In this document: positions 1 through 40,826 of the stretch, piece after piece
Position numbering within the stretch: position 1 is the stretch's first letter
How the letters are laid out: every line of letters starts with the position of its first letter
DNA from: Candidatus Heimdallarchaeota archaeon
Lineage (GTDB): Archaea > Asgardarchaeota > Heimdallarchaeia > Heimdallarchaeales > Heimdallarchaeaceae
Assembly: GCA_018238545.1 (NCBI GenBank)
Contig: JABCTC010000020.1
Location: forward strand, 1 to 64,000
Length of the DNA: 64,000 nucleotides
Direction of reading: 5' to 3'
Made by a program: the position numbers and the translations under genes
The notes under the pieces: model-generated
What the model saw: only the letters and a program-made list of their open reading frames with translations
Databases searched by the model: none
Told to the model about the DNA's origin: nothing

Positions 1-736
1 CCAAAGTAGGCAAAGTTTCAATTATATCTCCCTCAACATAGTAATCTAGTTGTTCATTATATAAAGTAGGTACAAGATTGAATAATGCTTTTTTAGTCGG
101 TAGAGATGGAGATAATAGAATATCAGCAGCTGGAAAAACTTCTAAACTTGTAGCAACTCCCACAACTATCTCACTCCTATTAGCTACTCTCATTGCAGTG
201 CTAATAATATCCCTGTCCAGAGATTCCCCAAAAAGTATAACTTTTGGTTTTAGAGGATTTTCACATTTAGGACATAAGGGGATTTTTTCCGGTTCAATGT
301 GTTTTTCGTAATTCATCTTTTCCTCATGAGAACATCTAATACAGTGCATTATGTCAGGATTGCCGTGTAATTCGTAAACATTTACAGATCCGGATTTCTG
401 ATGGAGCCCATCAATATTTTGCGTAGCAATATGAACACTATTTTCTCCTTTCATTTGTTGAATCTCTGTAATAGCGTAATGACCTGCATTAGGTTCTACG
501 GGACGAAAATCCTCATAAATAATACGAAAGAACTCCCACACTTTATCAGGGTTCTTTCTAAAAGCTCCGATAGACGCTACTTCACTAGGTTTGAATTTTT
601 CCCACAGTCCGCCTTCAGAACGAAAATCAGGAATACCACTATGAACACTTGTACCAGCACCAGTAAAGAAAATGATTGTCTCTGCTTTTAAAATCTGCTT
701 AGCAATCATTCTTATGATCTCGTCATTTGTATCCAT
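1..736 (-). CDS. Sir2-family NAD-dependent protein deacylase (3' end runs off the window)
   Basis: Not in the ORF track. Manual translation of the minus strand from ATG at 736 gives MDTNDEIIRMIAKQILKAETIIFFTGAGTSVHSGIPDFR...QNIDGLHQKSG...ELHGN...CIRC...CPKC...KPKVILFGE, which contains the sirtuin motifs. Confidence 0.93.
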   Translation of the reverse strand, partial: MDTNDEIIRMIAKQILKAETIIFFTGAGTSVHSGIPDFRSEGGLWEKFKPSEVASIGAFRKNPDKVWEFFRIIYEDFRPVEPNAGHYAITEIQQMKGENSVHIATQNIDGLHQKSGSVNVYELHGNPDIMHCIRCSHEEKMNYEKHIEPEKIPLCPKCENPLKPKVILFGESLDRDIISTAMRVANRSEIVVGVATSLEVFPAADILLSPSLPTKKALFNLVPTLYNEQLDYYVEGDIIETLPTL

Positions 737-907
737 AAGGTTCACTCAGTAACTCTGTTCGAATAAAGTTTTGATTATATTTGGAGAGGTTATATTTAAT
801 GTTTTAAGCTCTTATAGACTAAAACTTCTAAAATGTTACAAAAGGTTGTTTGAGGTTTTGTAAGTCCATTCAGAAAGATTTACATGTATCTAGTTTTCAG
901 AGGACTC

Positions 908-1504
908 ATGGACTACCATTTAACTACTCCAATACCACCCGAAGAACTGAAAAAAATCAGGATTGGGGATATAGTGTACCTGACAGGTACAGTTGTCACT
1001 GCTAGAGATGAAGCTCATCTTAAGGCATTAGAACTTCACAAAGAAGGTAAAGAACTACCTGTGAATTTCACCGGTATAGGACTTTTTCATTGTGGTCCAG
1101 TAATGAAAAAGAATGTTGATGATGAGTGGATAGTTGTTGCTGCAGGACCAACTACATCTGCAAGAATGGAAATCTTTCAAGATGAATTCATTAAAGTGTT
1201 TCATCCTGGAATAATCATTGGTAAAGGTGGAATGGGTGAAAAAACTGCCAAAGCGTGTCAAGAAGAAACTTGCATCTATGGATACTTCACTGGTGGAGCA
1301 GCTCTATTAGCAGCTGACAGAATAAAGAAGGTAAGGGATGTTTTTTGGTATGAAGAACTAGGAATGCCAGAATCACTCTGGGTATACGAAGTTGAAGAGT
1401 TTGGACCTTTAACTATAACAATAGACACCCATGGTGGGAATTTAACTGATGAGAGCAAAAAGAAAATAGAAGAAAACAAAAATAAGATTCTGCAAGAACT
1501 TTAG
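908..1504 (+). CDS. Class I fumarate hydratase / L-tartrate dehydratase, beta subunit
   Basis: Motifs GDIVYLTG, TARDEAH, HCGP, GPTTSARM, IGKGGMG, LGMPE, FGPL..IDTHG. ATG at 908 is preferred over 884. Confidence 0.9.
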   Translation: MDYHLTTPIPPEELKKIRIGDIVYLTGTVVTARDEAHLKALELHKEGKELPVNFTGIGLFHCGPVMKKNVDDEWIVVAAGPTTSARMEIFQDEFIKVFHPGIIIGKGGMGEKTAKACQEETCIYGYFTGGAALLAADRIKKVRDVFWYEELGMPESLWVYEVEEFGPLTITIDTHGGNLTDESKKKIEENKNKILQEL

Positions 1505-1610
1505 AGATATTTTGTGAGATTATTCTTTTTTCTCAGACTTATCGTCGTTTTTTTCACATTTTTCTTTAGTTTATAAACCAATTGTGTTATTATATTATTG
1601 AGTAACATAA

Positions 1611-4331
1611 ATGTCAACCAATTCAGGAGAAGAAGAAACCTATAATCACATCAGCCTAGATGATTTAAAACTGGAAATTCAAGAGGAATTAAAGAATATC
1701 AGAAGTGTAAAGAAAACTTTGCGTAAATTAAGCAAAGAAATCAAGTATTCCCAAGAATATAAATTCTCTGAGAAGAATGAAATTAGAATAAACACAGAAT
1801 TCATTAAACACAAATATACTTGCAATAAGGAGATTCTCGCTGGTAGTATTTCAATAAAAGAACATCTAGCTTATGTATTCAAAGAATCGGTTAAAGGATC
1901 TAGAATATTAAGAAATGCTATTCAAATAACAGGTATTGATATTGACCAAAATTCTACTGACTGGATAAAACATCTTCTTAATGATATGTCAAATTTGAAT
2001 CACATTTTTGGTATCCTAAATGAAAATAGTTCCCGAAATATCATAGAATTGACAAATTTCTATCTCAAACAGTATAATGTTTCAGAGAAAGGTAAATTTA
2101 ACCTATTAAAGAGAGATAATTGTTCAGATGATCTAAAAAATTACGTGTGCAAACTTGAATGTGTAGAGGCTGATTCTTATGTTCGTGTACTCCTAACTAA
2201 ATGTGGTGTTCATGGAATTACCAGCACACATTCTGCTGAATACTTTCTTAAAGCATTTATTAAATTACACTTTGAAAATGACTCGATAAGAAGGCACTGG
2301 TTTAAATCTAAAAATCAAAAATCATTTAATAAAGTCCTTGTTAAAGGACTAAAAGGTAAATTTTCCAGTTCAAATGGCTTTGATGATATTCTGTTAACAG
2401 TATCTGGGAAAGACAAGTCTGAAAAATTTGATTTAAAGACTGTTGAAATGAAAGTAGGAGATGATTTGGGGAGCTTTTTCGATTACATTAGAACAAACAA
2501 AAATACAAAATTTACCTCTCAAATATGTGATGATATTGACAGTTTTCTTGCAATCAGATATAAACAATTAGTAAATAACAATATTGATTCTGAGCTTGCT
2601 AATAACATAATAGTGAATTTAAACAATAAATACAAATTTACAGCATCAGGGATAGGTTACAATTTTAATATTAAGATTAAATCTGACAATCTACGTAATG
2701 TTCTCATAGGTGCTGGGTTGACACAAGATAAAACTAATCGGATTTTAGAGGGAGCTATAAAACAGAACCAGTTGATTTCACTTATGCAGCATGGAAGTGC
2801 TCATAAGATGGTGAAAAAGAAAGGATATTATACAACAATAGACGAAATTGTTCATGATATAGAGTTTAAAGTTAAAATTAACGATAAAAACAAAGAAAAA
2901 TACGTGATTGTAAAGATACATCGTGATATGTTCTTACCAAAATTTGTTATAAGAGATAATGGTAAGCTAATTCTAGAAATTGAAGGTTTTAGTTCTGTTC
3001 TACAGAAATTGGTCAATGAGAAAAACAAGACATCAGATCAATATAAAGCCTACATGAAACTCAAAATTATATTTAATAGTGCTTTGGTTGAATTGAACTC
3101 ATGTGAAATTAGCTATAATACTTCTGCTGAAGAGGTTGTTGGAAATCTGAATGAAGTGCATCAATCAATTTATTTTGAAATAATCAAACATTGTAGGGAT
3201 GGTTTATTTGAAGAACTATCTGTTTTTGAAAATGGAAGAATGTCTCACTGTTTGGAAACGATAAGTAATCTAGGTCAGAAAACCAGGGAACAACTTAAAA
3301 AACATTTCAAAAGCAAAAGTATTGTACCTTATACGTTTCATCAACATTGGCAAACACTTTATTCTCTAGAGAAAGCATTCCAATTAAAAGGCATGATTGC
3401 AAATTCCTCACCAGTGAACGGTTGGATGATTCTGAAAAATAGATATATTGGAAAAATGCTTCCTAATGACATTGTTGAAATTTGCGAAGTAGCAAATATT
3501 TGGAATGAATTTCTAGAAGATTCAAATTGGTTTCAAAAGATATTAAGAGATTTACCACCACCCTACAAAATTCCAGATGGATTTAATCTCAATCATCGAG
3601 CTCATATCATTAGACCAATTATTTTTTTTGATAAACAATTAATGACTCCAGTTATTGTAAAGGGATATAATAATAGAAATCAATGGTTTGGAGTTAAGAT
3701 AGATATTAACAAGTTTTTTGAGGAAAAAACTTCTTTTAGTAAATATCTGTTTCAATTTCCGATCAAGATCAACATTAAGGGGGTTGAATTCAGTCAATCA
3801 GAGGAAATTGTAAAAGCATGGAAAGAACGTCTTATCTACACTGGAGTTCCAGAGGAGCAGGTTAATCTTCTTGGAACTAAGTATAATTTACGAAATGCAG
3901 AAGGTTGCTTTAATGTCAAAATTTTATTTGCAGTTATTTTTGAATTCAGAAATGTTTGGAACGAATTTTCTACATGGATTCGAGAATTTATTCAAACTAC
4001 AAATGAGTGGAGCAAGGTTTTACCAAGTTCAGTGGACCAAATATGTGGTTCAAGACTACGAGTAGTAAATGAACAAATTCAATATGATAATTCAGGAAAA
4101 GGTGATTGGAGAGAAGTGCTACTTGGTCTAGGATCAATGCATGGCAAGGAAATGTGGAATGTACGGAAAGACATTAAACGTTCCTTTGTTTTTCCTTCAC
4201 AAAACAAACTATTCAATAAACTAATCGAAGATATTCAATACCAGATTTGGAAACTAATACCTGAATCACCTCAAAACATAGATGTAAATGAAATCTGGAG
4301 TTTTATCATCTCTAACTGGAATGCATTATGA
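1611..4331 (+). CDS. Hypothetical 906-aa Lys/Asn-rich soluble protein
   Basis: Long uninterrupted, very AT-rich ORF with no signal peptide or TM segment. No family recognised. Confidence 0.8.
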   Translation: MSTNSGEEETYNHISLDDLKLEIQEELKNIRSVKKTLRKLSKEIKYSQEYKFSEKNEIRINTEFIKHKYTCNKEILAGSISIKEHLAYVFKESVKGSRILRNAIQITGIDIDQNSTDWIKHLLNDMSNLNHIFGILNENSSRNIIELTNFYLKQYNVSEKGKFNLLKRDNCSDDLKNYVCKLECVEADSYVRVLLTKCGVHGITSTHSAEYFLKAFIKLHFENDSIRRHWFKSKNQKSFNKVLVKGLKGKFSSSNGFDDILLTVSGKDKSEKFDLKTVEMKVGDDLGSFFDYIRTNKNTKFTSQICDDIDSFLAIRYKQLVNNNIDSELANNIIVNLNNKYKFTASGIGYNFNIKIKSDNLRNVLIGAGLTQDKTNRILEGAIKQNQLISLMQHGSAHKMVKKKGYYTTIDEIVHDIEFKVKINDKNKEKYVIVKIHRDMFLPKFVIRDNGKLILEIEGFSSVLQKLVNEKNKTSDQYKAYMKLKIIFNSALVELNSCEISYNTSAEEVVGNLNEVHQSIYFEIIKHCRDGLFEELSVFENGRMSHCLETISNLGQKTREQLKKHFKSKSIVPYTFHQHWQTLYSLEKAFQLKGMIANSSPVNGWMILKNRYIGKMLPNDIVEICEVANIWNEFLEDSNWFQKILRDLPPPYKIPDGFNLNHRAHIIRPIIFFDKQLMTPVIVKGYNNRNQWFGVKIDINKFFEEKTSFSKYLFQFPIKINIKGVEFSQSEEIVKAWKERLIYTGVPEEQVNLLGTKYNLRNAEGCFNVKILFAVIFEFRNVWNEFSTWIREFIQTTNEWSKVLPSSVDQICGSRLRVVNEQIQYDNSGKGDWREVLLGLGSMHGKEMWNVRKDIKRSFVFPSQNKLFNKLIEDIQYQIWKLIPESPQNIDVNEIWSFIISNWNAL

Positions 4332-4406
4332 TAGTAAACCACTTCCAGAATCCTTAAAATTAACGATTCTCTATGTTCTAGTTAGGATATAAAAAGGAAA
4401 TCAATC

Positions 4407-6215
4407 ATGAATAAAAAAATTGGCGTTTTGTTTTTAATTTTGTTTTTTAGTTCTCCATACTTTTTGAAACCAGCTGAAGCAAGTGTAAATATCGCATTTT
4501 ACATTGATTTACTTTCACCAAACACAGACCCTGAAAGAAATCAATGGATTATGTTGATCCAAGAACAGCTTTCAAAAATAGGGATAGGAGTAAGACTACA
4601 TGAATCAACAACTTGGGATAACATTGCTCCTCGTACATGGAGTTATCCCTTAATTGATTATGATTATATTCCAACATATGCTGAGGGCGGTTATGATTTG
4701 CTCTTCGTTAAGTGGTCTTGGGATCTTGATTGGGATCCTACAGATCTTTATAGCAGTCGATGTTTATATCCTAGTGGAAACAATTTTTACCAATATAATA
4801 ATACCACATTTGATGCTAAATTAGATAAATATTTGACAGAATTTGATCCAATTCTACGCAATAAATATTCTCATGATATGCAAAAAATACTCTATGAAGA
4901 CTTGCCTTCAATATGTATTGTCTATCCAAGATTCCTCTTCGCGTATTCTACCAATAGCAGTTACATTGATTGGTTTTTACTATCAATTTCCAATCATCGT
5001 GCTGAAAATTGGCTAGATTATTATGATAGTGTCATCAAATATGCTATTCCTGAAAAGCTCACAGAACCAAATATTTTTGTTCAAAAGACATTCTATGACG
5101 CTCAGTGGATGCAATGTGTCTATGGATCTTTGTATCAAAGAGCTCGGTATAACCATGAATGGGAACCTGTTATTGCAACAGATGCTGTTTATAGTTCTGA
5201 TTATAAGAACTTAACAATTACAATCGATCCAAATGCTAAATTTAGTGATGGAAGCCCAGTTCTTGCTGAAGATGTAAAGTACTCTTATGAATTGTATATG
5301 ACTCCTGCTGTTCATTCATCGAATTACGATTATCTAACAAAGTGGTTTACAACCAATGATTCAATTGAAATTGTTAATCCATATACTCTGAACTTCAATC
5401 TAACTCAAGTGTACACTTTTGCACACAGTTTGCTGTCTTATAGTATTGTGGATAAGAGTATTGCTGATCCAGCTATCGCAGCTTATGGATATAACATTTT
5501 TAACGAAATTCCATTAACGGGGAATGTACTTGATACATTAGTCAAATCTTGTGGTCCTTTCATGTTGGATGTATATGATTCAGTTAACGGTTCAGTTAAG
5601 CTTCTTCCTAATCCTTACTGGAACAACCTTACTGCTTCTAGGGGAATACAACCACTTTTGGATGAATTATATTTTATTCCTTTCTCTAACACTGATTTTG
5701 TTCATTCAGAATTACTCGCAGGCCATATCGATATCATGGATTACCACTTTGAACCTCTCCCATGTATTTTTTGGGATTTTGGAAGTTATGATTGTTACTT
5801 AGTGAAAGAACTTGCTCATGAAGAAATAGCTATTAACTTAAAGCACCCAATTATTGGTACTGGAGAATTAACCCCCGTTGGAACTCCTGAAGCAGCTAGG
5901 TTGATTCGTAAAGCTATAAGTCATGTTATACCAAGATCTGAAATCTCTGATAGTTTATCCTATTTACCCCGACCTGGAATTATACCTATGCCTGATTCTT
6001 GTATAGGATTTGATGATAGTTTGACACCTTATCGTTATGAGCTTGATTCTGCAATATACTATATCGAACAAGCAGGATATTGTGTTGAAGGACCTTGTTC
6101 TGTAACACAGATAACAGCAGAAAACTGCTTACTCATTCTTTGTATTTTAGGATTATCCAGTTTCTATTTAATTTACAAAAGAAAACCTTCTTTCAATAGA
6201 ATGAATAATAGGTGA
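4407..6215 (+). CDS. ABC transporter substrate-binding protein, family 5 (peptide/nickel), circularly permuted, with C-terminal membrane anchor
   Basis: Signal peptide; motifs AKFSDGSPVLAEDVKYS, CGPF, NPYWN, IRKAISH, QLSKIGI, QKILYEDLP; hydrophobic C-terminal tail. Confidence 0.85.
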   Translation: MNKKIGVLFLILFFSSPYFLKPAEASVNIAFYIDLLSPNTDPERNQWIMLIQEQLSKIGIGVRLHESTTWDNIAPRTWSYPLIDYDYIPTYAEGGYDLLFVKWSWDLDWDPTDLYSSRCLYPSGNNFYQYNNTTFDAKLDKYLTEFDPILRNKYSHDMQKILYEDLPSICIVYPRFLFAYSTNSSYIDWFLLSISNHRAENWLDYYDSVIKYAIPEKLTEPNIFVQKTFYDAQWMQCVYGSLYQRARYNHEWEPVIATDAVYSSDYKNLTITIDPNAKFSDGSPVLAEDVKYSYELYMTPAVHSSNYDYLTKWFTTNDSIEIVNPYTLNFNLTQVYTFAHSLLSYSIVDKSIADPAIAAYGYNIFNEIPLTGNVLDTLVKSCGPFMLDVYDSVNGSVKLLPNPYWNNLTASRGIQPLLDELYFIPFSNTDFVHSELLAGHIDIMDYHFEPLPCIFWDFGSYDCYLVKELAHEEIAINLKHPIIGTGELTPVGTPEAARLIRKAISHVIPRSEISDSLSYLPRPGIIPMPDSCIGFDDSLTPYRYELDSAIYYIEQAGYCVEGPCSVTQITAENCLLILCILGLSSFYLIYKRKPSFNRMNNR

Positions 6216-6415
6216 ATAATATCTTGAGAATAAGAAAATCAACTAAGTTTTTCTGATAAAATTGGCTTAATGGGTGCTCTAAAATAAGAAAAAAAAGAGG
6301 ATTTTAGCTTAGAATATTAAGTGATAAATTTTTTTGCTTGTTCATAGCACAAAGTTTTAATTTAATTTGTCTTTTCCAGTAAATGAATCTGATAACAATT
6401 CATAGTTCTTGCAAA

Positions 6416-6553
6416 GAGTGTCTTTGGGTTTACGAAGTTGAAGAGTTTGGACCATTAACTATAACGATAGACACCCACGGTGGAAACTTTACTGAGGATT
6501 CAAAGAAGAATATTGCTGCAAATCGTGATAAGATTTTGCAGGAGTTGAACTAG
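6416..6553 (+). pseudogene. Orphan 3' fragment of the fumarase beta gene (45 codons plus TAG)
   Basis: Translates ECLWVYEVEEFGPLTITIDTHGGNFTEDSKKNIAANRDKILQELN*. The intact gene ends ESLWVYEVEEFGPLTITIDTHGGNLTDESKKKIEENKNKILQEL*. Confidence 0.9.
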
Positions 6554-6554
6554 T

Positions 6555-7433
6555 ATGAAGGATATAGCACAAGTAGTAGAAGATACAGCTGCACGGTTAC
6601 TGAAAATCGCTGCAACAATTTTACCTACAGAGGTAAAAAACACATTAATCAAAGATGAGAAAGAGACAGAAGGAAGTTTAGGCAAGTCTCAATTACATGC
6701 AATTAATGAAAATGTTAACATTGCTGAAACACAAAGTAAACCAATGTGCCAAGATACCGGTCTTGTAGCCTTTTTCGTAAAAATCGGTGATAAGTTCCCA
6801 ATTAGATCAGAAGTAAAAACAGCTCTAATTGAAGCAACAAAGAAAGCAACTTCTAATGTGCCTCTCAGACCAAATGCTGTAGATATGTTCAAGGGTAACA
6901 CAAAGAATAATGTTGGATTAAGAGGTTATGTTCCTTGGTTCTACTTTGATTTAGTAGAAGGAGATAAGTGCGAAATTATAGCACTACCTAAGGGTGGTGG
7001 ATCCAGCAACGTCGGAAAAATGAAGATGATTCCACCAGGAAAAGGTATCAAAGGTGTTAAAGAATTTGTAGTTGAAGCAGTAGCTGCTGCTGGACCTTTA
7101 GGTTGTCCCCCATATACAGTTGGTGTTGGTGTTGGAGGAGGAGAAGATATGTGTATGAATCTTGGTAAGAAAGCTCTTCTGAGACCTCTTTATGAATATC
7201 ATGAAGACGAAAAGATAGCCGATTTGGAAAAAGAGATGTTACAAATATTGAACAAACTTGAAATTGGTGCTATGGGACTAGGAGAAGGATCATCTGTACT
7301 AGATGTTCATATGGAATTCGCTGCAAGACATCCTGCATCATTACCTGTAGGAGTAGTTATCTCTTGTTGGGCATTGCGACATGCTGGTGCAACAATAGAT
7401 AAAGAAGGAAATGTGGAATACCACCCACAATAA
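6555..7433 (+). CDS. Class I fumarate hydratase / L-tartrate dehydratase, alpha subunit (Fe-S)
   Basis: Motifs PMCQDTG, PLRPN, PKGGGS, GCPP..VGVGVGG, HPASLPV..SCWALR. Confidence 0.92.
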   Translation: MKDIAQVVEDTAARLLKIAATILPTEVKNTLIKDEKETEGSLGKSQLHAINENVNIAETQSKPMCQDTGLVAFFVKIGDKFPIRSEVKTALIEATKKATSNVPLRPNAVDMFKGNTKNNVGLRGYVPWFYFDLVEGDKCEIIALPKGGGSSNVGKMKMIPPGKGIKGVKEFVVEAVAAAGPLGCPPYTVGVGVGGGEDMCMNLGKKALLRPLYEYHEDEKIADLEKEMLQILNKLEIGAMGLGEGSSVLDVHMEFAARHPASLPVGVVISCWALRHAGATIDKEGNVEYHPQ

Positions 7434-8240
7434 TCATTCTTTTTTTCTAAGATACAAAATAATCCTTTTCTTGGAAATACTCAAAGAGAGGAATACTACA
7501 CAAAGGAAACCAATAACCATGTGTACATCAACTGTAGTTGTAGGCATTGAGGGAGAAGGATTAGAAAAATTATCTCGAATTTCTTGTTCGTTTAATTCTC
7601 TATTATATATGATTACTTCATCAATGATGCCATCAAACCACCAACCTGATCCACCAGTATCGTGACCAATTTGTAGATAATCTTCCTCATGTTCTTCTGT
7701 ATTTAATGAATCAAAATATGTTGGACTTGTGGCTATAGTTGTTGCATTTACATATAATTTGACATAACTCCCATTCCAAGTAGCTACTAAGTGATACCAA
7801 GTATTTGTATCCAGCACACTGTATGCTCTAGTAGTAGCTACTGCTGTACCACTACTTAAGTAAAGTATTAAATCCCCACCTGTGCAAGACGAAAAATGAA
7901 ATTCTCCTTCTGTCCATAAGATCCATTTACAAACTAAGGGATTCCCACTGCTTCCACCATCACCTGAAAAATTATCTGCTTTTATCCATAATTCTATTGA
8001 AAACCCATCATGAACAGATAAAGTATCTGAGTCTTCTATTCTAACATAGTCATCAATTCCATCAAAAGAAAGAGCTTTTCCTTTTATAGCTTCATTTGTC
8101 CATTCAGCTCCACTTAGAATCCCATCATTATTATTTTGACTACTATCCATTACTTCCTCGCCTTCACCTTCATCAAAATTCCAGTATCCCACAATATCCT
8201 CTTTTTTTATCAGACCTTGCCAGATTTGAAGTTTTTCCAA
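7434..8240 (-). CDS. LamG / concanavalin-A-like domain surface protein with C-terminal TM anchor (start uncertain, possibly 5'-truncated)
   Basis: VGYWNFDEG, ALSFDG.DDYV, WYHLVATWNG, FDGIIDEV.IYNR; C-terminal hydrophobic helix; no signal peptide at the TTG start. Confidence 0.8.
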   Translation of the reverse strand: MEKLQIWQGLIKKEDIVGYWNFDEGEGEEVMDSSQNNNDGILSGAEWTNEAIKGKALSFDGIDDYVRIEDSDTLSVHDGFSIELWIKADNFSGDGGSSGNPLVCKWILWTEGEFHFSSCTGGDLILYLSSGTAVATTRAYSVLDTNTWYHLVATWNGSYVKLYVNATTIATSPTYFDSLNTEEHEEDYLQIGHDTGGSGWWFDGIIDEVIIYNRELNEQEIRDNFSNPSPSMPTTTVDVHMVIGFLCVVFLSLSISKKRIILYLRKKE

Positions 8241-8369
8241 AAAAAATTGTTTAACTCTATATGGATACTTTAGATTTTTTAATTTAATTCAGTCCTTATC
8301 TAAAAGTATTAATCTGAATTTACACTCTTTACAATAAGTAGTTCATTCTACGAAGCCTCTATTAAAGAG

Positions 8370-9332
8370 ATGCAGCAGTTGAAAAAGAAACAAGAACACT
8401 CATTCAAGTATGTATTTGGACCCGTTCCCTCAAGAAGATTAGGTCGATCCTTAGGTATAAGTCCTATCCCAAGAAAAACATGTAATTTCACTTGTATATA
8501 TTGTCAGTTAGGTAGAACACCAAATTTTACAAATAAAAGAGTAGATTTTTTTCCTTCAGAAGCAATTATCAAAGAGGTTCAAAAGGCTCTTTTAATAACA
8601 GATAAAATAGATTATATTACCATAGTAGGAGATGGAGAACCAACACTCTATGCTGGTTTAGGGACTTTAATTAATAGTCTGAAGAAACACACATCTTTCC
8701 CCATAGCTGTCATCACAAATGGTGCATTACTATATCGGGAAGATGTTAGACACGATTTACTAAATGCTGATGTAATTTTGCCTACTTTAGATGCTCCCAC
8801 AGAAAAATTATTTCGTTTGATTAATCGACCTCATAAAGAAATAAACCTAAAAAGTGTAATTCAAGGCATGAAGCAGTTTAGAGAGGAATATAACGGGCAG
8901 TTTTGGGTAGAAGTTATGCTTGTTAAAGGGAAGAATGACAAACCAGAAATTTTATGCAAAATTAAGGAGGTTATTGATTCGATTGGTTTTGATAAAGTTT
9001 TTATCAATGTTCCAATACGGCCTCCAGCAGAAAGTTGGGTGAAAATACCTGATCCTGAAGTTCTTCTTGAAGCTCAAAAGATTCTTTCAGCAGAAAGTAT
9101 CTCTCTTTATGAAACATCAGATGTGACTTCTATCGATAAAACAGCTTCTCCTGAACAGAATATTATAAAAATAGCTCAAAGACATCCCCTACGAGAAGAT
9201 CAAGTCTACTCGCTTTTAGAAACTTTGTCCAATAATTATGTTGAAAACCTATTATTGAGAATGGAAAAAGAAGGAAAGATTAAGTCCGTTACTTATAATG
9301 ATAGAAGATTCTACATCATTCCACAAAGGTAA
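8370..9332 (+). CDS. Radical SAM protein of unknown function
   Basis: VFGPVPSRRLGRSLGI, CNFTCIYC (CxxxCxxC), GEPTL. Confidence 0.88.
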   Translation: MQQLKKKQEHSFKYVFGPVPSRRLGRSLGISPIPRKTCNFTCIYCQLGRTPNFTNKRVDFFPSEAIIKEVQKALLITDKIDYITIVGDGEPTLYAGLGTLINSLKKHTSFPIAVITNGALLYREDVRHDLLNADVILPTLDAPTEKLFRLINRPHKEINLKSVIQGMKQFREEYNGQFWVEVMLVKGKNDKPEILCKIKEVIDSIGFDKVFINVPIRPPAESWVKIPDPEVLLEAQKILSAESISLYETSDVTSIDKTASPEQNIIKIAQRHPLREDQVYSLLETLSNNYVENLLLRMEKEGKIKSVTYNDRRFYIIPQR

Positions 9333-11885: not shown

Positions 11886-11933
11886 GTCACAACTTGTGAC
11901 CTCTTTATGTGTTCAATCCTTTTTAAAAGGGAT
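11886..11933. promoter_or_regulatory. Two palindromes in a divergent promoter region: GTCACAA-C-TTGTGAC and ATCCTTTTTAAAAGGGAT (overlapping a TATA-like TTTTAAAA)
   Basis: Perfect 7-1-7 inverted repeat at 11886-11900 and an imperfect 18-bp palindrome at 11916-11933. Confidence 0.45.
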
Positions 11934-11959
11934 AGTGATGTTAAGATAGGTGCAAAAAA

Positions 11960-12061
11960 ATGAATAAAAAACTCGCAATAAAAATAAAACTCCAAAAAGA
12001 ACTTAAAATAGAGAGAAATTCTGGACTAAGAACATACATACTCCTAAAAGGTTCTCTCTAA
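11960..12061 (+). CDS. Putative 33-aa basic small protein (MNKKLAIKIKLQKELKIERNSGLRTYILLKGSL)
   Basis: ATG preceded by SD-like AGGTG and a TATA-like box; below the ORF-track size cutoff. Confidence 0.35.
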   Translation: MNKKLAIKIKLQKELKIERNSGLRTYILLKGSL

Positions 12062-12103
12062 AATTCCATTTTTCTTATCTTCATAAGATAAACATATCTT
12101 CTT

Positions 12104-12937
12104 TTATTTATATCCAAGAACACTCTCACCATCAGGAGTCTTCTTTGTTTTAAAACCAACAGAATTAAGTCTGTCTTGGACACCTTTCACAAAATCTTTC
12201 CCTCGATATTTTGAACCAGGATTACCAACATAATGAAGTAGTCTTCCTTTAGGTTTAAGAATACGATATAGTTCCTCATAAAACTTTTCAGAATATAACT
12301 CACCTGCGAAAGAGAATCGGGGAGGATCATGAAGAATAACACTAAAGGAATCATCGCTGAATTTTTTGACTGATTCCGTTGCATTCTCGTTGATTAATTT
12401 AATTGTTCCCCGTTCAATGCCATCAAAAAGTTCTCTTGAATAAGGATTGAATCCAGCTATCTCCAATACACTGGGGTCTTTCTCTATAGTTGTAACAGTT
12501 GCATTTTTCCTCTTAGCTTGAATTGCTGTGTATCCCAATCCTGTGCATATATCAAGCACTATATCTGACGATTTAACTCTCACATATTCTATTTTTCTTT
12601 CTGCATCTTCTATAGGTGTCATATGCTTTGTTCGATGCATCCGAATCCCATCAATCTCTATTGTTGGAACTGTTCCTTTGATTGGTTCTAATTTGTAAAA
12701 ACATTCATCAAAAAAAGCAATCTTTCTTGGTTTTTTTTCTAGTAAAAATGCTGCCTGAGCTTTCTCAAGTTTCTTAATCGTTTTTAGGGTGTAAGTAAAA
12801 TCACCAATTTTGATGTTTTCTCCTTTAAGATAAGCAATTTGATTTATTAGTCCAAGGTCTAGCTTTAATTTGATTGAAGTTTTTCTCTTTTGATGAGCTA
12901 TAATTATTTTTTCAGCTTCAAAAGAATCAATTATCAT
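12104..12937 (-). CDS. Class I SAM-dependent methyltransferase (archaeal COG2521-like)
   Basis: PTIEIDGIRMH, VLDICTGLGYTA, HDPPRFS.AGELYS. Confidence 0.88.
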   Translation of the reverse strand: MIIDSFEAEKIIIAHQKRKTSIKLKLDLGLINQIAYLKGENIKIGDFTYTLKTIKKLEKAQAAFLLEKKPRKIAFFDECFYKLEPIKGTVPTIEIDGIRMHRTKHMTPIEDAERKIEYVRVKSSDIVLDICTGLGYTAIQAKRKNATVTTIEKDPSVLEIAGFNPYSRELFDGIERGTIKLINENATESVKKFSDDSFSVILHDPPRFSFAGELYSEKFYEELYRILKPKGRLLHYVGNPGSKYRGKDFVKGVQDRLNSVGFKTKKTPDGESVLGYK

Positions 12938-39769: not shown

Positions 39770-40078
39770 CTAATATATTAACTTGAATACATTTAATTTT
39801 CCTTCTGGTTCTTTCCATTTAACATCAATATTGTAAACTTTTGCGGAAGGGGGACCTCTCTTTGCATAACCTATGAGATTGAATAGTTTCTCTTCTTTGC
39901 CTTCTGCTATGATTTCTACAGTTCCATCTCTAAGGTTTCTTACTGTGCCCACCAAATTTAATCTAGTAGCATAATCCCTAGTAGATGCTCTGAAAAAGAC
40001 TCCTTGAACTATACCTGTAACAATGATTTCTACTCTTTTTAACGAATTATCAGTCATTATTTCTGTACCTACTAACAT
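39770..40078 (-). CDS. acyP: Acylphosphatase
   Basis: G.VQGVFFR, GTVRN..DG.VE, GPP.A; probable start ATG 40057. Confidence 0.93.
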   Translation of the reverse strand: MLVGTEIMTDNSLKRVEIIVTGIVQGVFFRASTRDYATRLNLVGTVRNLRDGTVEIIAEGKEEKLFNLIGYAKRGPPSAKVYNIDVKWKEPEGKLNVFKLIY

Positions 40079-40826
40079 ATTTCTTGATTAATATATCAGA
40101 AAACTCTGGAAGAATCTTTTCACAAGGTCCAAAGAAAGAGTGGTCTGAAATAGCTGTAAGGGGGGTTTCTTCGATGTTAAATTCAAGAAGAACTGCACCA
40201 TTATTCTTTGCAAACAAAGGTAATGATGCTACTGGGTGAACAACTCCTGATGTCCCAATTATAAGTACTATATTTGCTTGATTTACCCAATTTACAGCTT
40301 CTTGCCATTTGATTTGATCTAGTGGTTCTCCGAACCAGACTACATCAGGTCGAAGTAAGTTCTTTTTACATTTTGGACATTTTGGGACGATATCTTTCTG
40401 CTCTGCAAACTCTTTGTTATCCCATCTTTGAATATAATCGCAAACTTGACATCGAGCATACCTTATCCTACCGTGTACTTCGACAATTTTTTTGGTATTC
40501 GCAATTTCATGCAACCCATCTACATTTTGTGTAATAACACCTATCAAAAGTCCTTCTTCTTCTAGTTTCGTTAAGGCTTCGTGTGCTGGGTTTGGTTGCG
40601 CTTGCAACAGAATCCTCATGCGAGCTCTATACCACTCCCAAACAAGATTAGGATCATTGCTAAATGCGTAGGGTGTTGCTAAATCTTGAGCGTGATATTG
40701 ATTCCAAAGACCATCCTCTCCTCTAAAAGTAGGCATGCCCGAAGCTTTGGATATTCCTGCACCTACTAGAACAACAATTTTTGGTTCCAGTTCTAATAAA
40801 TTATCAGTAATGGAATCGATACTCAT
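40050..40826 (-). CDS. cobB: NAD-dependent protein deacylase (class III sirtuin)
   Basis: GAGISKASG.PTFRG, W.WY..R, TQNVDGLH, HG, two CxxC, RPDVVWFGE, GTSG.V.P. Confidence 0.92.
   Translation of the reverse strand: MSIDSITDNLLELEPKIVVLVGAGISKASGMPTFRGEDGLWNQYHAQDLATPYAFSNDPNLVWEWYRARMRILLQAQPNPAHEALTKLEEEGLLIGVITQNVDGLHEIANTKKIVEVHGRIRYARCQVCDYIQRWDNKEFAEQKDIVPKCPKCKKNLLRPDVVWFGEPLDQIKWQEAVNWVNQANIVLIIGTSGVVHPVASLPLFAKNNGAVLLEFNIEETPLTAISDHSFFGPCEKILPEFSDILIKKYVSRYRNND

Follow-up and report, generated by a model that had tools for sequence, protein, structure and literature searches.

The 64,000-nucleotide stretch analysed here (the window: positions 1 to 64,000 of contig JABCTC010000020.1, GenBank assembly GCA_018238545.1) comes from a Candidatus Heimdallarchaeota archaeon of the family Heimdallarchaeaceae. 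Near its start an insert of about 5 kb lies between the beta and alpha genes of a class I fumarase (or tartrate dehydratase), giving the beta gene a replacement 3' end and leaving the original end as a fragment in front of alpha. We propose, at a probability of roughly 0.65, that this insert is a homing element working like the WHO element of yeast with an unrelated nuclease: the mobile unit would consist of a replacement beta 3' end, a gene for a 906-residue endonuclease, optional cargo, and a right end that carries a promoter for alpha.

If this proposal is correct, a third class of homing, distinct from introns and inteins and so far demonstrated in yeast alone, extends to Asgard archaea with an unrelated enzyme. 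The element also gives direct evidence of DNA exchange and repair between Heimdallarchaeaceae species that are ~79% identical. Through it, cargo genes and replacement gene ends, those of a Ras-like GTPase, of tRNAs and of the 16S flank included, could move within the lineage near the eukaryotes. One scaffold retargeted to at least eight long sites, each legible from its flanks, would moreover supply candidate rare cutters whose targets are predicted and whose resistant controls come built in.

The duplicated gene end and the histories of its copies

A repeat search recovered the 3' end of the beta gene at 1369-1497 and again at 6415-6543 (129 nt, 78% identity, spacing 5046), by a wide margin the longest repeat in the first 12 kb (runner-up 33 nt). 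This confirms what an earlier note made from the sequence alone had claimed, namely that the gene end occurs twice and that the downstream copy stops 1 bp before the alpha start; its TAG ends at 6553 and the alpha ATG begins at 6555. The same note described a block differing at synonymous sites only, followed by a diverged tail, and codon-by-codon comparison agrees, with seven codons differing between Leu165 and Asn186 (LWVYE...THGGN), all synonymously, and eight amino-acid changes plus a shifted stop in the tails. That description overlooked codon 164, which is Ser (TCA) upstream and Cys (TGT) downstream, and its insert size of 4.9 kb needs correcting, as the mobile unit is 5,046-5,047 bp (1369-6415) once the upstream 3' copy is counted. 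Pfam assigns beta to Fumerase_C and alpha to Fumerase, a level at which fumarase and tartrate dehydratase are indistinguishable.

A chimeric assembly of two strains, or decay after duplication of a full-length beta gene, had been named as explanations that would undo this picture, and neither holds: the insert is real. Contigs of run X1 match the window without differences, one spanning 1306-4710 and thereby the left junction, another spanning 6150-6583 and the right junction; independent ENA, NCBI and JGI assemblies show the same order of beta, orphan, fragment and alpha, and no relative among the genomes compared has two full-length beta genes at the locus. In a further contig of that run 1368 is followed by a single G and then by 6416, a base-precise empty allele from a close strain whose 3' end is of the downstream type. 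Occupied and empty alleles are both present in this sample, with a summed contig depth of ~27-36 on the flanks and 10-14 on the insert that is not a copy number. The joint of a circular form (6415 to 1369) was not found in the contigs of four runs, and contigs cannot show its absence.

The element occupies the same codon (Glu163) in seven Heimdallarchaeaceae genomes and in independent metagenome contigs; the layout lies within single contigs in G001, G008, G011 and G040 and is split over two in G002 and G007, and 15 beta-alpha junctions are empty. What stays constant from copy to copy is the replacement 3' end, a spacer of 106 bp, the right end and, as the core of every occupied site, the orphan gene for the 906-residue protein (Table 1). 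In G001, G007, G008, G011, G040 and contigs L105-L107 and L109-L110 the orphan is the sole gene, which means that no integrase, methyltransferase or immunity gene travels with the element, and no methyltransferase was found in any occupied site. Cargo, where present, lies between the orphan stop and the right end and varies between sites, as the earlier note had anticipated together with the empty junctions. The solute-binding cargo is unique to the window's copy, where 4330-6308 has no match in other elements, and its nearest paralogues in the genus share ~67% of nucleotides; G002 and L108 carry instead a NosD-like gene and a second gene. A TTTAA is invariant across 10 aligned right ends, 39-42 nt before the junction (61 nt in the window's clade), and the element's right end probably re-supplies a promoter for alpha.

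Table 1. Coordinates in the window of the fumarase element and the genes that flank it.
Feature	Position	Strand	Basis
Class I fumarase (or tartrate dehydratase) beta gene, chimeric: host 5' part and element-borne 3' part	884..1504	+	Pfam PF05683, E 1e-42
Left junction, third base of Pro162 codon; putative cut/exchange point	1368..1370	.	Empty-allele contig of run X1; fragment starts
Replacement 3' end (Ser164 TCA, AGC at codon 191)	1369..1504	+	Upstream-copy clade, support 99/97; codon-164 pattern
Spacer: T-rich tract and AT-rich promoter-like stretch before nuclease gene	1505..1610	+	Conserved among elements; putative function
906-residue orphan, predicted site-specific PD-(D/E)xK endonuclease, core gene	1611..4331	+	Present in every occupied site behind beta
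Predicted active-site motif E210 ... G256-F-D258-D ... E279-x-K281	2238..2453	+	Family conservation
Cargo: ABC-type family 5 solute-binding protein	4407..6215	+	Pfam PF00496, E 5e-37
Conserved right end: purine run, TTTTAA (6355-6360, TATA-like), in-frame ATG at 6383	6309..6415	+	Aligned right ends
Displaced original beta 3' end (Cys164), open frame, putative right homology arm	6416..6553	+	Empty-allele similarity and tree
Fumarase alpha gene (host)	6555..7433	+	Pfam PF05681, E 1.5e-83; directly behind beta in 15 empty junctions

Trees of the two 3' copies with their orthologues, the comparison proposed in the earlier note, gave them separate histories and supported both of its assignments, the upstream copy as the one that arrived with the insert and the downstream copy as the host's original end. 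All upstream 3' ends (11/11) form one clade (support 99/97) that branches like the tree of the 906-residue protein, and the downstream fragments interleave with the empty alleles of their own host clades, being 87-96% identical to sister empty alleles and free of stops. The window's fragment is 89% (G010) and 87% (G016) identical to empty alleles and 78% identical to its upstream copy; the 5' part of the window's beta gene is closest to the empty-allele hosts G021 and G010 (93-94%), and the 3' part to other elements. The junction is equally regular and site-specific, as had been suggested: nine of the 10 element-linked fragments begin with GAR TGY at codon 163. Codon 164 is TCN in 9/11 upstream copies and TGY in 12/15 empty alleles and 9/9 downstream fragments, and at codon 191 every empty allele has TCN and no upstream copy does. 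Three of the empty alleles (G006, G012, G015) combine the element's TCA at codon 164 with a host-type tail, a combination expected after loss of the element by recombination between copies, or after conversion without the gene.

Occupied sites are spread over the host tree, which requires 8 changes against a shuffled mean of 7.2. Between G007 and G011 host sequence is 96.4% identical and the 906-residue proteins 51.6%, and between G011 and G001 the values are 79.3% and 81.6%; hosts ~96% identical that carry proteins ~52% identical imply that the element moves sideways, and AU (approximately unbiased) tests reject congruence of host and element in both directions (p about 1e-11). These sequence comparisons show horizontal spread between species and two genera of Heimdallarchaeaceae. 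In the window's own clade (G000, the genome of the window, with G002 and L108) element and host divergence are similar and inheritance may be partly vertical. A single ancient insertion or duplication passed on vertically with many losses would account for that similarity, yet as a general history it is refuted by the AU tests and the incongruent trees, by downstream fragments that stay stop-free and close to sister empty alleles, and by the Cys164 of most empty alleles where the element has Ser; taken together with an assembly artefact, against which stand unitigs crossing both junctions and the agreement of independent assemblies, we regard it as highly improbable. A dN/dS ratio (non-synonymous to synonymous substitution rates) of 0.18-0.25 indicates that the 906-residue gene is under purifying selection.

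A predicted nuclease and the movement of the element

The earlier note left the mechanism unexplained and found no tyrosine or serine recombinase and no DDE transposase. The latter statement stands, as Pfam gave no recombinase or transposase family on the two inserted open reading frames, and the family conserves neither the tyrosine-recombinase R-H-x-x-R-Y set nor a catalytic Ser set, DDE or reverse-transcriptase motif. The former can be replaced by a candidate mobility enzyme, the 906-residue product of 1611-4331. This protein has no Pfam, PADLOC or PDB sequence match, 43 members of its family have no Pfam match either, and it falls into 16 clusters among 1.84 billion representatives. Across 20 family representatives, less than 60% identical to each other and at about 20% identity, the best-kept residues include E210 (17/17), D258 (18/19), K281 (18/18), E279 (14/18) and G256-F, and a layout of E ... 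D ... (D/E)xK is that of the PD-(D/E)xK active site. In a model of residues 141-906 (mean predicted local distance difference test, pLDDT, 84; an earlier model from 13 close sequences reached 49 and was not used) the motif lies on helix H66-79 and strands E119-125 and E132-142. Fold matches to HamA, PaqCI, MspJI, NgoMIV and Cfr10I are weak and cover model residues 6-445, the N-terminal part; searches of the Atlas also point weakly to a restriction fold (template modelling score <0.31), three weak routes in all that lead to the N-terminal half, Foldseek against PDB and viral libraries returned nothing at E 0.001, and no recombinase, transposase or polymerase is among the fold matches. No LAGLIDADG motif or CxxC repeat is conserved in the family, in a scan that detects LAGLIDADG_3 in a neighbouring gene, and no signal peptide or membrane helix is predicted for the 906-residue protein. 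Two look-alikes, an IS4-like Y-R-E-K at 758-770 and an HUH motif at 577-579, were rejected, being absent from distant homologues. We conclude that the protein is predicted, mainly from its motif, to be a restriction-fold PD-(D/E)xK nuclease; since an element of one gene without methyltransferase or immunity gene could hardly carry an unspecific DNase, it would be a rare cutter.

With such an enzyme, the anatomy can be read as the outcome of homing. Donor and recipient DNA would meet in one cell, and the enzyme would cut the empty allele at or near codons 162-164, as the fixed junction suggests. The element's own allele would escape cutting through differences to the right of the cut, chiefly the change from TGY to TCA at codon 164, an immunity proposed from the correlation between occupancy and codon. 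Repair of the break from the donor could then use the 5' part of beta as left arm and the donor's orphan fragment or alpha as right arm, whereupon the recipient would acquire the element's gene end along with its nuclease and whatever cargo it holds, the resident end being left behind as the orphan fragment; that outcome is shown by the trees of the copies. Expression of alpha would be maintained from the element's right end. Elements would later decay, or be lost when the two copies recombine, which would produce an allele with Ser164 and a host-type tail, and frameshifted and remnant copies of the nuclease gene do exist, which fits such a cycle of invasion and decay. A new site might first be entered through one-sided repair, by analogy with phage elements.

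The end product would look the same if the element integrated as a circle, with the replacement 3' end as attachment site and the 906-residue protein, perhaps through its C-terminal part, acting as a new site-specific integrase by one crossover, in the manner of e14 and phage 21 at icd. The single fixed crossover point would suit this, as would the near-perfect ~40 bp repeats around tRNA-linked paralogues, and no long homology across species would be needed. Attachment cores are usually near-identical, however, while the two beta copies share 78% identity and are unlike at the junction itself, and the residues conserved in the family, which keeps no integrase-type motif, point to a hydrolytic nuclease of predicted restriction fold. 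We consider integration improbable, and the integration in the style of e14 and phage 21 to which the earlier note had pointed gives way to the homing model, which fits the anatomy better than Campbell integration. One contig (C288) of G016, whose main beta-alpha locus is empty, has a decayed element-type beta tail and the nuclease's upstream spacer followed by cargo of the G002 type (L039:2905-3145), the nuclease gene itself being gone. The sequence preceding the tail faintly resembles the element's right end, as integration of a circle would predict, but the likeness is not significant against shuffles. The piece may derive from another strain, from a former tandem array or from the joint of a circle.

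Degenerate element-type beta tails also occur at an unrelated locus, before a zinc-finger-like gene, in G016 (L041:6355-6447) and G021 (L042:7101-7223), and the same tail piece appears as loose ends in run X1.

The wider family and the surroundings of the fumarase locus

Profile searches found the family in 20/29 other genomes of the host family and nearly nowhere else in 399 genomes of the phylum, a search that scored only the two best candidates per genome; outside the host family there was one strong match (G079, a genome 69% complete in which it could be misbinned) and one marginal one. Viral contigs gave no homologue with patterns from close relatives. Members are flanked on both sides by duplicated 3' ends of fhs (833 bp, 85%), cysS (730 bp, 79%), pepF (285 bp, 91%; in G043), a Ras-family GTPase (360 bp, 81%) and an alpha/beta hydrolase (243 bp, 76%), with only remnants of the family gene at the cysS, hydrolase and G011 fhs loci. 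Duplications of 40-100 bp surround paralogues at tRNA-Leu(TAG) and other tRNA-like ends, a member adjoins a tRNA-Arg(TCT) site in two complete genomes, and others lie directly behind the 16S rRNA 3' end. A direct repeat within 6 kb brackets 14/27 family loci and 18/309 large control genes of the window's genome, the loci being related and not independent. Family clades sort by target locus, and these sequence patterns indicate that one scaffold has been retargeted to at least eight different genes, tRNAs and 16S included.

The 16S-linked clade and two giants (1,872 and 4,628 aa) begin with a signal-like N-terminus and four to five membrane-like helices before the nuclease module. Long members of 1,300-4,600 aa (L119:6239-11182, L123:320-5359, L118:8129-12385, L120, L124, L121:8924-14542 and L115:2058-15944) share this arrangement, their nuclease module being C-terminal, and have no Pfam match in their outer part, and in the paralogues L118 and L119 no gene lies between the nuclease and the 16S end. 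As a speculative and rather unlikely extension, the family may be a new class of homing element in which the long forms, with a signal peptide, a large outer region, membrane helices and the nuclease inside, make the cutting of 16S, tRNA or housekeeping genes in a neighbouring cell depend on contact between cells, or in which a 750-residue module cuts and integrates without ordinary homology. The fumarase element would then be a stripped-down form. The window's genome has a second member on contig C86 (L064:8113-10143), convergent with and directly behind the 16S rRNA 3' end; its frame is apparently shortened at the start and repeated blocks lie upstream. In G012 the 3' part of the Ras-family small GTPase, from the G3 motif on, is replaced by a 9-kb insert with a shortened member (L066:2470-2827 and 11925-12282). 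The complete genome G044 carries a member convergent with an intron-bearing tRNA (tcta) and next to a LAGLIDADG gene and a 16S-linked insert (L112:8717-11128), and in G045 a tRNA-linked member is broken by an inserted 483-residue gene (L114:8938-13239).

Several observations weigh against homing at the fumarase locus. In G004 a 995-bp duplication, 89% identical, of the beta 3' end and the whole of alpha surrounds two cargo genes (L034:4460-5453 and 7984-8978); this replacement includes no nuclease and starts four codons after the usual junction. The window's genome has eight other gene-end duplications, 0.6-11 kb apart, without a family gene (C100, C102, C119, C43, C51, C72, C77), the one on C72 being at pepF, a family target in G043, and 13/27 family loci gave no bracketing repeat in the test above. 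Repair across ~79% host identity is hard for ordinary recombination. Upstream copies in G040 and L105 keep Cys164, so that immunity would have to involve changes besides the one at codon 164. Intact elements were not seen in tandem clusters. The best fold match of the protein is weak (Z 5.4, root-mean-square deviation 4.9, 170 residues) and residues after ~590 have no assigned fold in the model searches. Finally, the junction proved not to be the best-conserved part of beta: it ranks about 115/558, only at the edge of a moderately conserved block.

Some of these points would favour homology-anchored capture, which the earlier note had also put forward: recombination within beta with an illegitimate join at the other end ("insertion with long target duplication"), the 906-residue gene being a passenger kept for defence or as a toxin that does not pick the site. 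The nuclease-free replacement in G004 and the eight further duplications fit this account, as does G001, where alpha too has its last 67 codons in duplicate, on either side of a 222-residue gene of no known family (L031:3535-3735). Such insertions are described for restriction-modification genes (PMC2853133), at least seven family members have the toxin-like layout of signal peptide, membrane helices and C-terminal nuclease, and HamA, the best fold match, is a defence nuclease. Illegitimate joins should vary, though, and here junction and right end are common to elements whose proteins are 50% identical and whose hosts belong to two genera; moreover, there is no methyltransferase or immunity gene and no PADLOC match, and each family clade retains its own target. 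Capture is retained as a minority rival that we find unlikely, if somewhat less so than integration, and homing is preferred.

Upstream of beta, L105:1-8928 has N6-methyltransferase, HSDR_N-like and Mrr-like genes that replace the usual neighbours, and in G009 a 416-residue gene is inserted before beta. Directly behind alpha the window has a Laminin-G-like gene (7434-8240, minus strand) at a place where genes differ in nearly every relative, and a contig of run X1 skips 7561-8195. Sir2-like genes are several (window 2-745 and 40050-40826, and contig C119 of G000); C119 carries a 94% identical copy of the window's first gene, and at the locus of that gene in the window relatives split into groups of 82-88% and ~55%.

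Comparison with known systems

By the features tested, the fumarase element is not an integrative element of the e14 type, a restriction-modification insertion or a toxin-immunity cassette. Integrase elements (e14, phage 21, archaeal SSV/pNOB8 type) encode a recombinase, which is lacking here, and polymorphic toxin cassettes have an export signal and an immunity gene, whereas the 906-residue protein has neither a signal nor, in single-gene elements, a following gene. Enzymes of a comparable class are known among homing endonucleases, I-Ssp6803I and I-Bth0305I being of the PD-(D/E)xK and EDxHD type, yet known PD-(D/E)xK homing enzymes are small and intron-encoded and the present protein is large and free-standing; Pfam and PDB sequence searches gave it no similarity to known homing enzymes. 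In fungal mitochondria, endonuclease reading frames at Allomyces atp6 and Ophiostoma rps3 reportedly bring a new gene end and displace the resident one, with GIY-YIG or LAGLIDADG enzymes unlike that of the fumarase element. Partial gene duplications beside free-standing homing endonuclease genes have been noted (PMC7487136).

Restriction-modification genes can insert with long target duplication (Nobusato 2000; Furuta 2010, PMC2853133), and these insertions likewise place a nuclease gene between direct repeats, without integrase and often at gene ends. Their repeats are near-identical (e.g. 44/46) and variable, and they include a methyltransferase by definition; the fumarase element has repeats 78% identical, a fixed site and no methyltransferase. 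Among described Asgard mobile elements, those of PMC8813620 (aloposons, HeimM1/2, HeimV1/2) share the host family and, with the Atabeyarchaeia integrated elements (iMGEs; PMC11529989), lie next to tRNA and 16S genes, but they use tyrosine integrases or a LAGLIDADG-like gene. In the passages of these papers that were consulted, and in the open literature only, neither the 906-residue protein family nor the replacement of gene ends is described. The free-standing seg and mob endonucleases of T-even phages home without introns, cutting in a neighbouring gene with co-conversion (PMC2988022), and their one-sided illegitimate repair offers a route to new sites; unlike the fumarase element they leave no orphan gene end.

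In the open literature surveyed, the only known system working in the proposed way is the yeast WHO element at FBA1 (Coughlan et al. 2020, PMC7282813; bioRxiv 10.64898/2026.08.13.744650). In both, a free-standing endonuclease gene sits right behind a metabolic gene and a new 3' end is supplied, with the old end remaining as a fragment that starts at a fixed position; in both, the 5' part of the host gene has a history different from that of the 3' part, which travels with the endonuclease, and copies decay to pseudogenes and have family members at other loci. The WHO enzyme, in contrast, is an intein-like LAGLIDADG protein with a C-terminal zinc finger whose cleavage is demonstrated, and the unrelated protein described here is a predicted restriction-fold nuclease whose cleavage is likewise predicted from sequence. 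WHO targets FBA1 in budding yeast and forms tandem clusters by repeated homing; the fumarase element targets the beta gene of Heimdallarchaeaceae, with no intact cluster seen and one decayed tail with cargo on a short G016 contig. It further lies inside an operon, with a promoter-like right end and cargo, in an archaeon without meiosis where it spreads between species and genera, and its family appears to have taken on at least eight different target genes, tRNAs and 16S among them. The fumarase element works like WHO, on the reading we favour, but is not WHO: enzyme family, host and target all differ.

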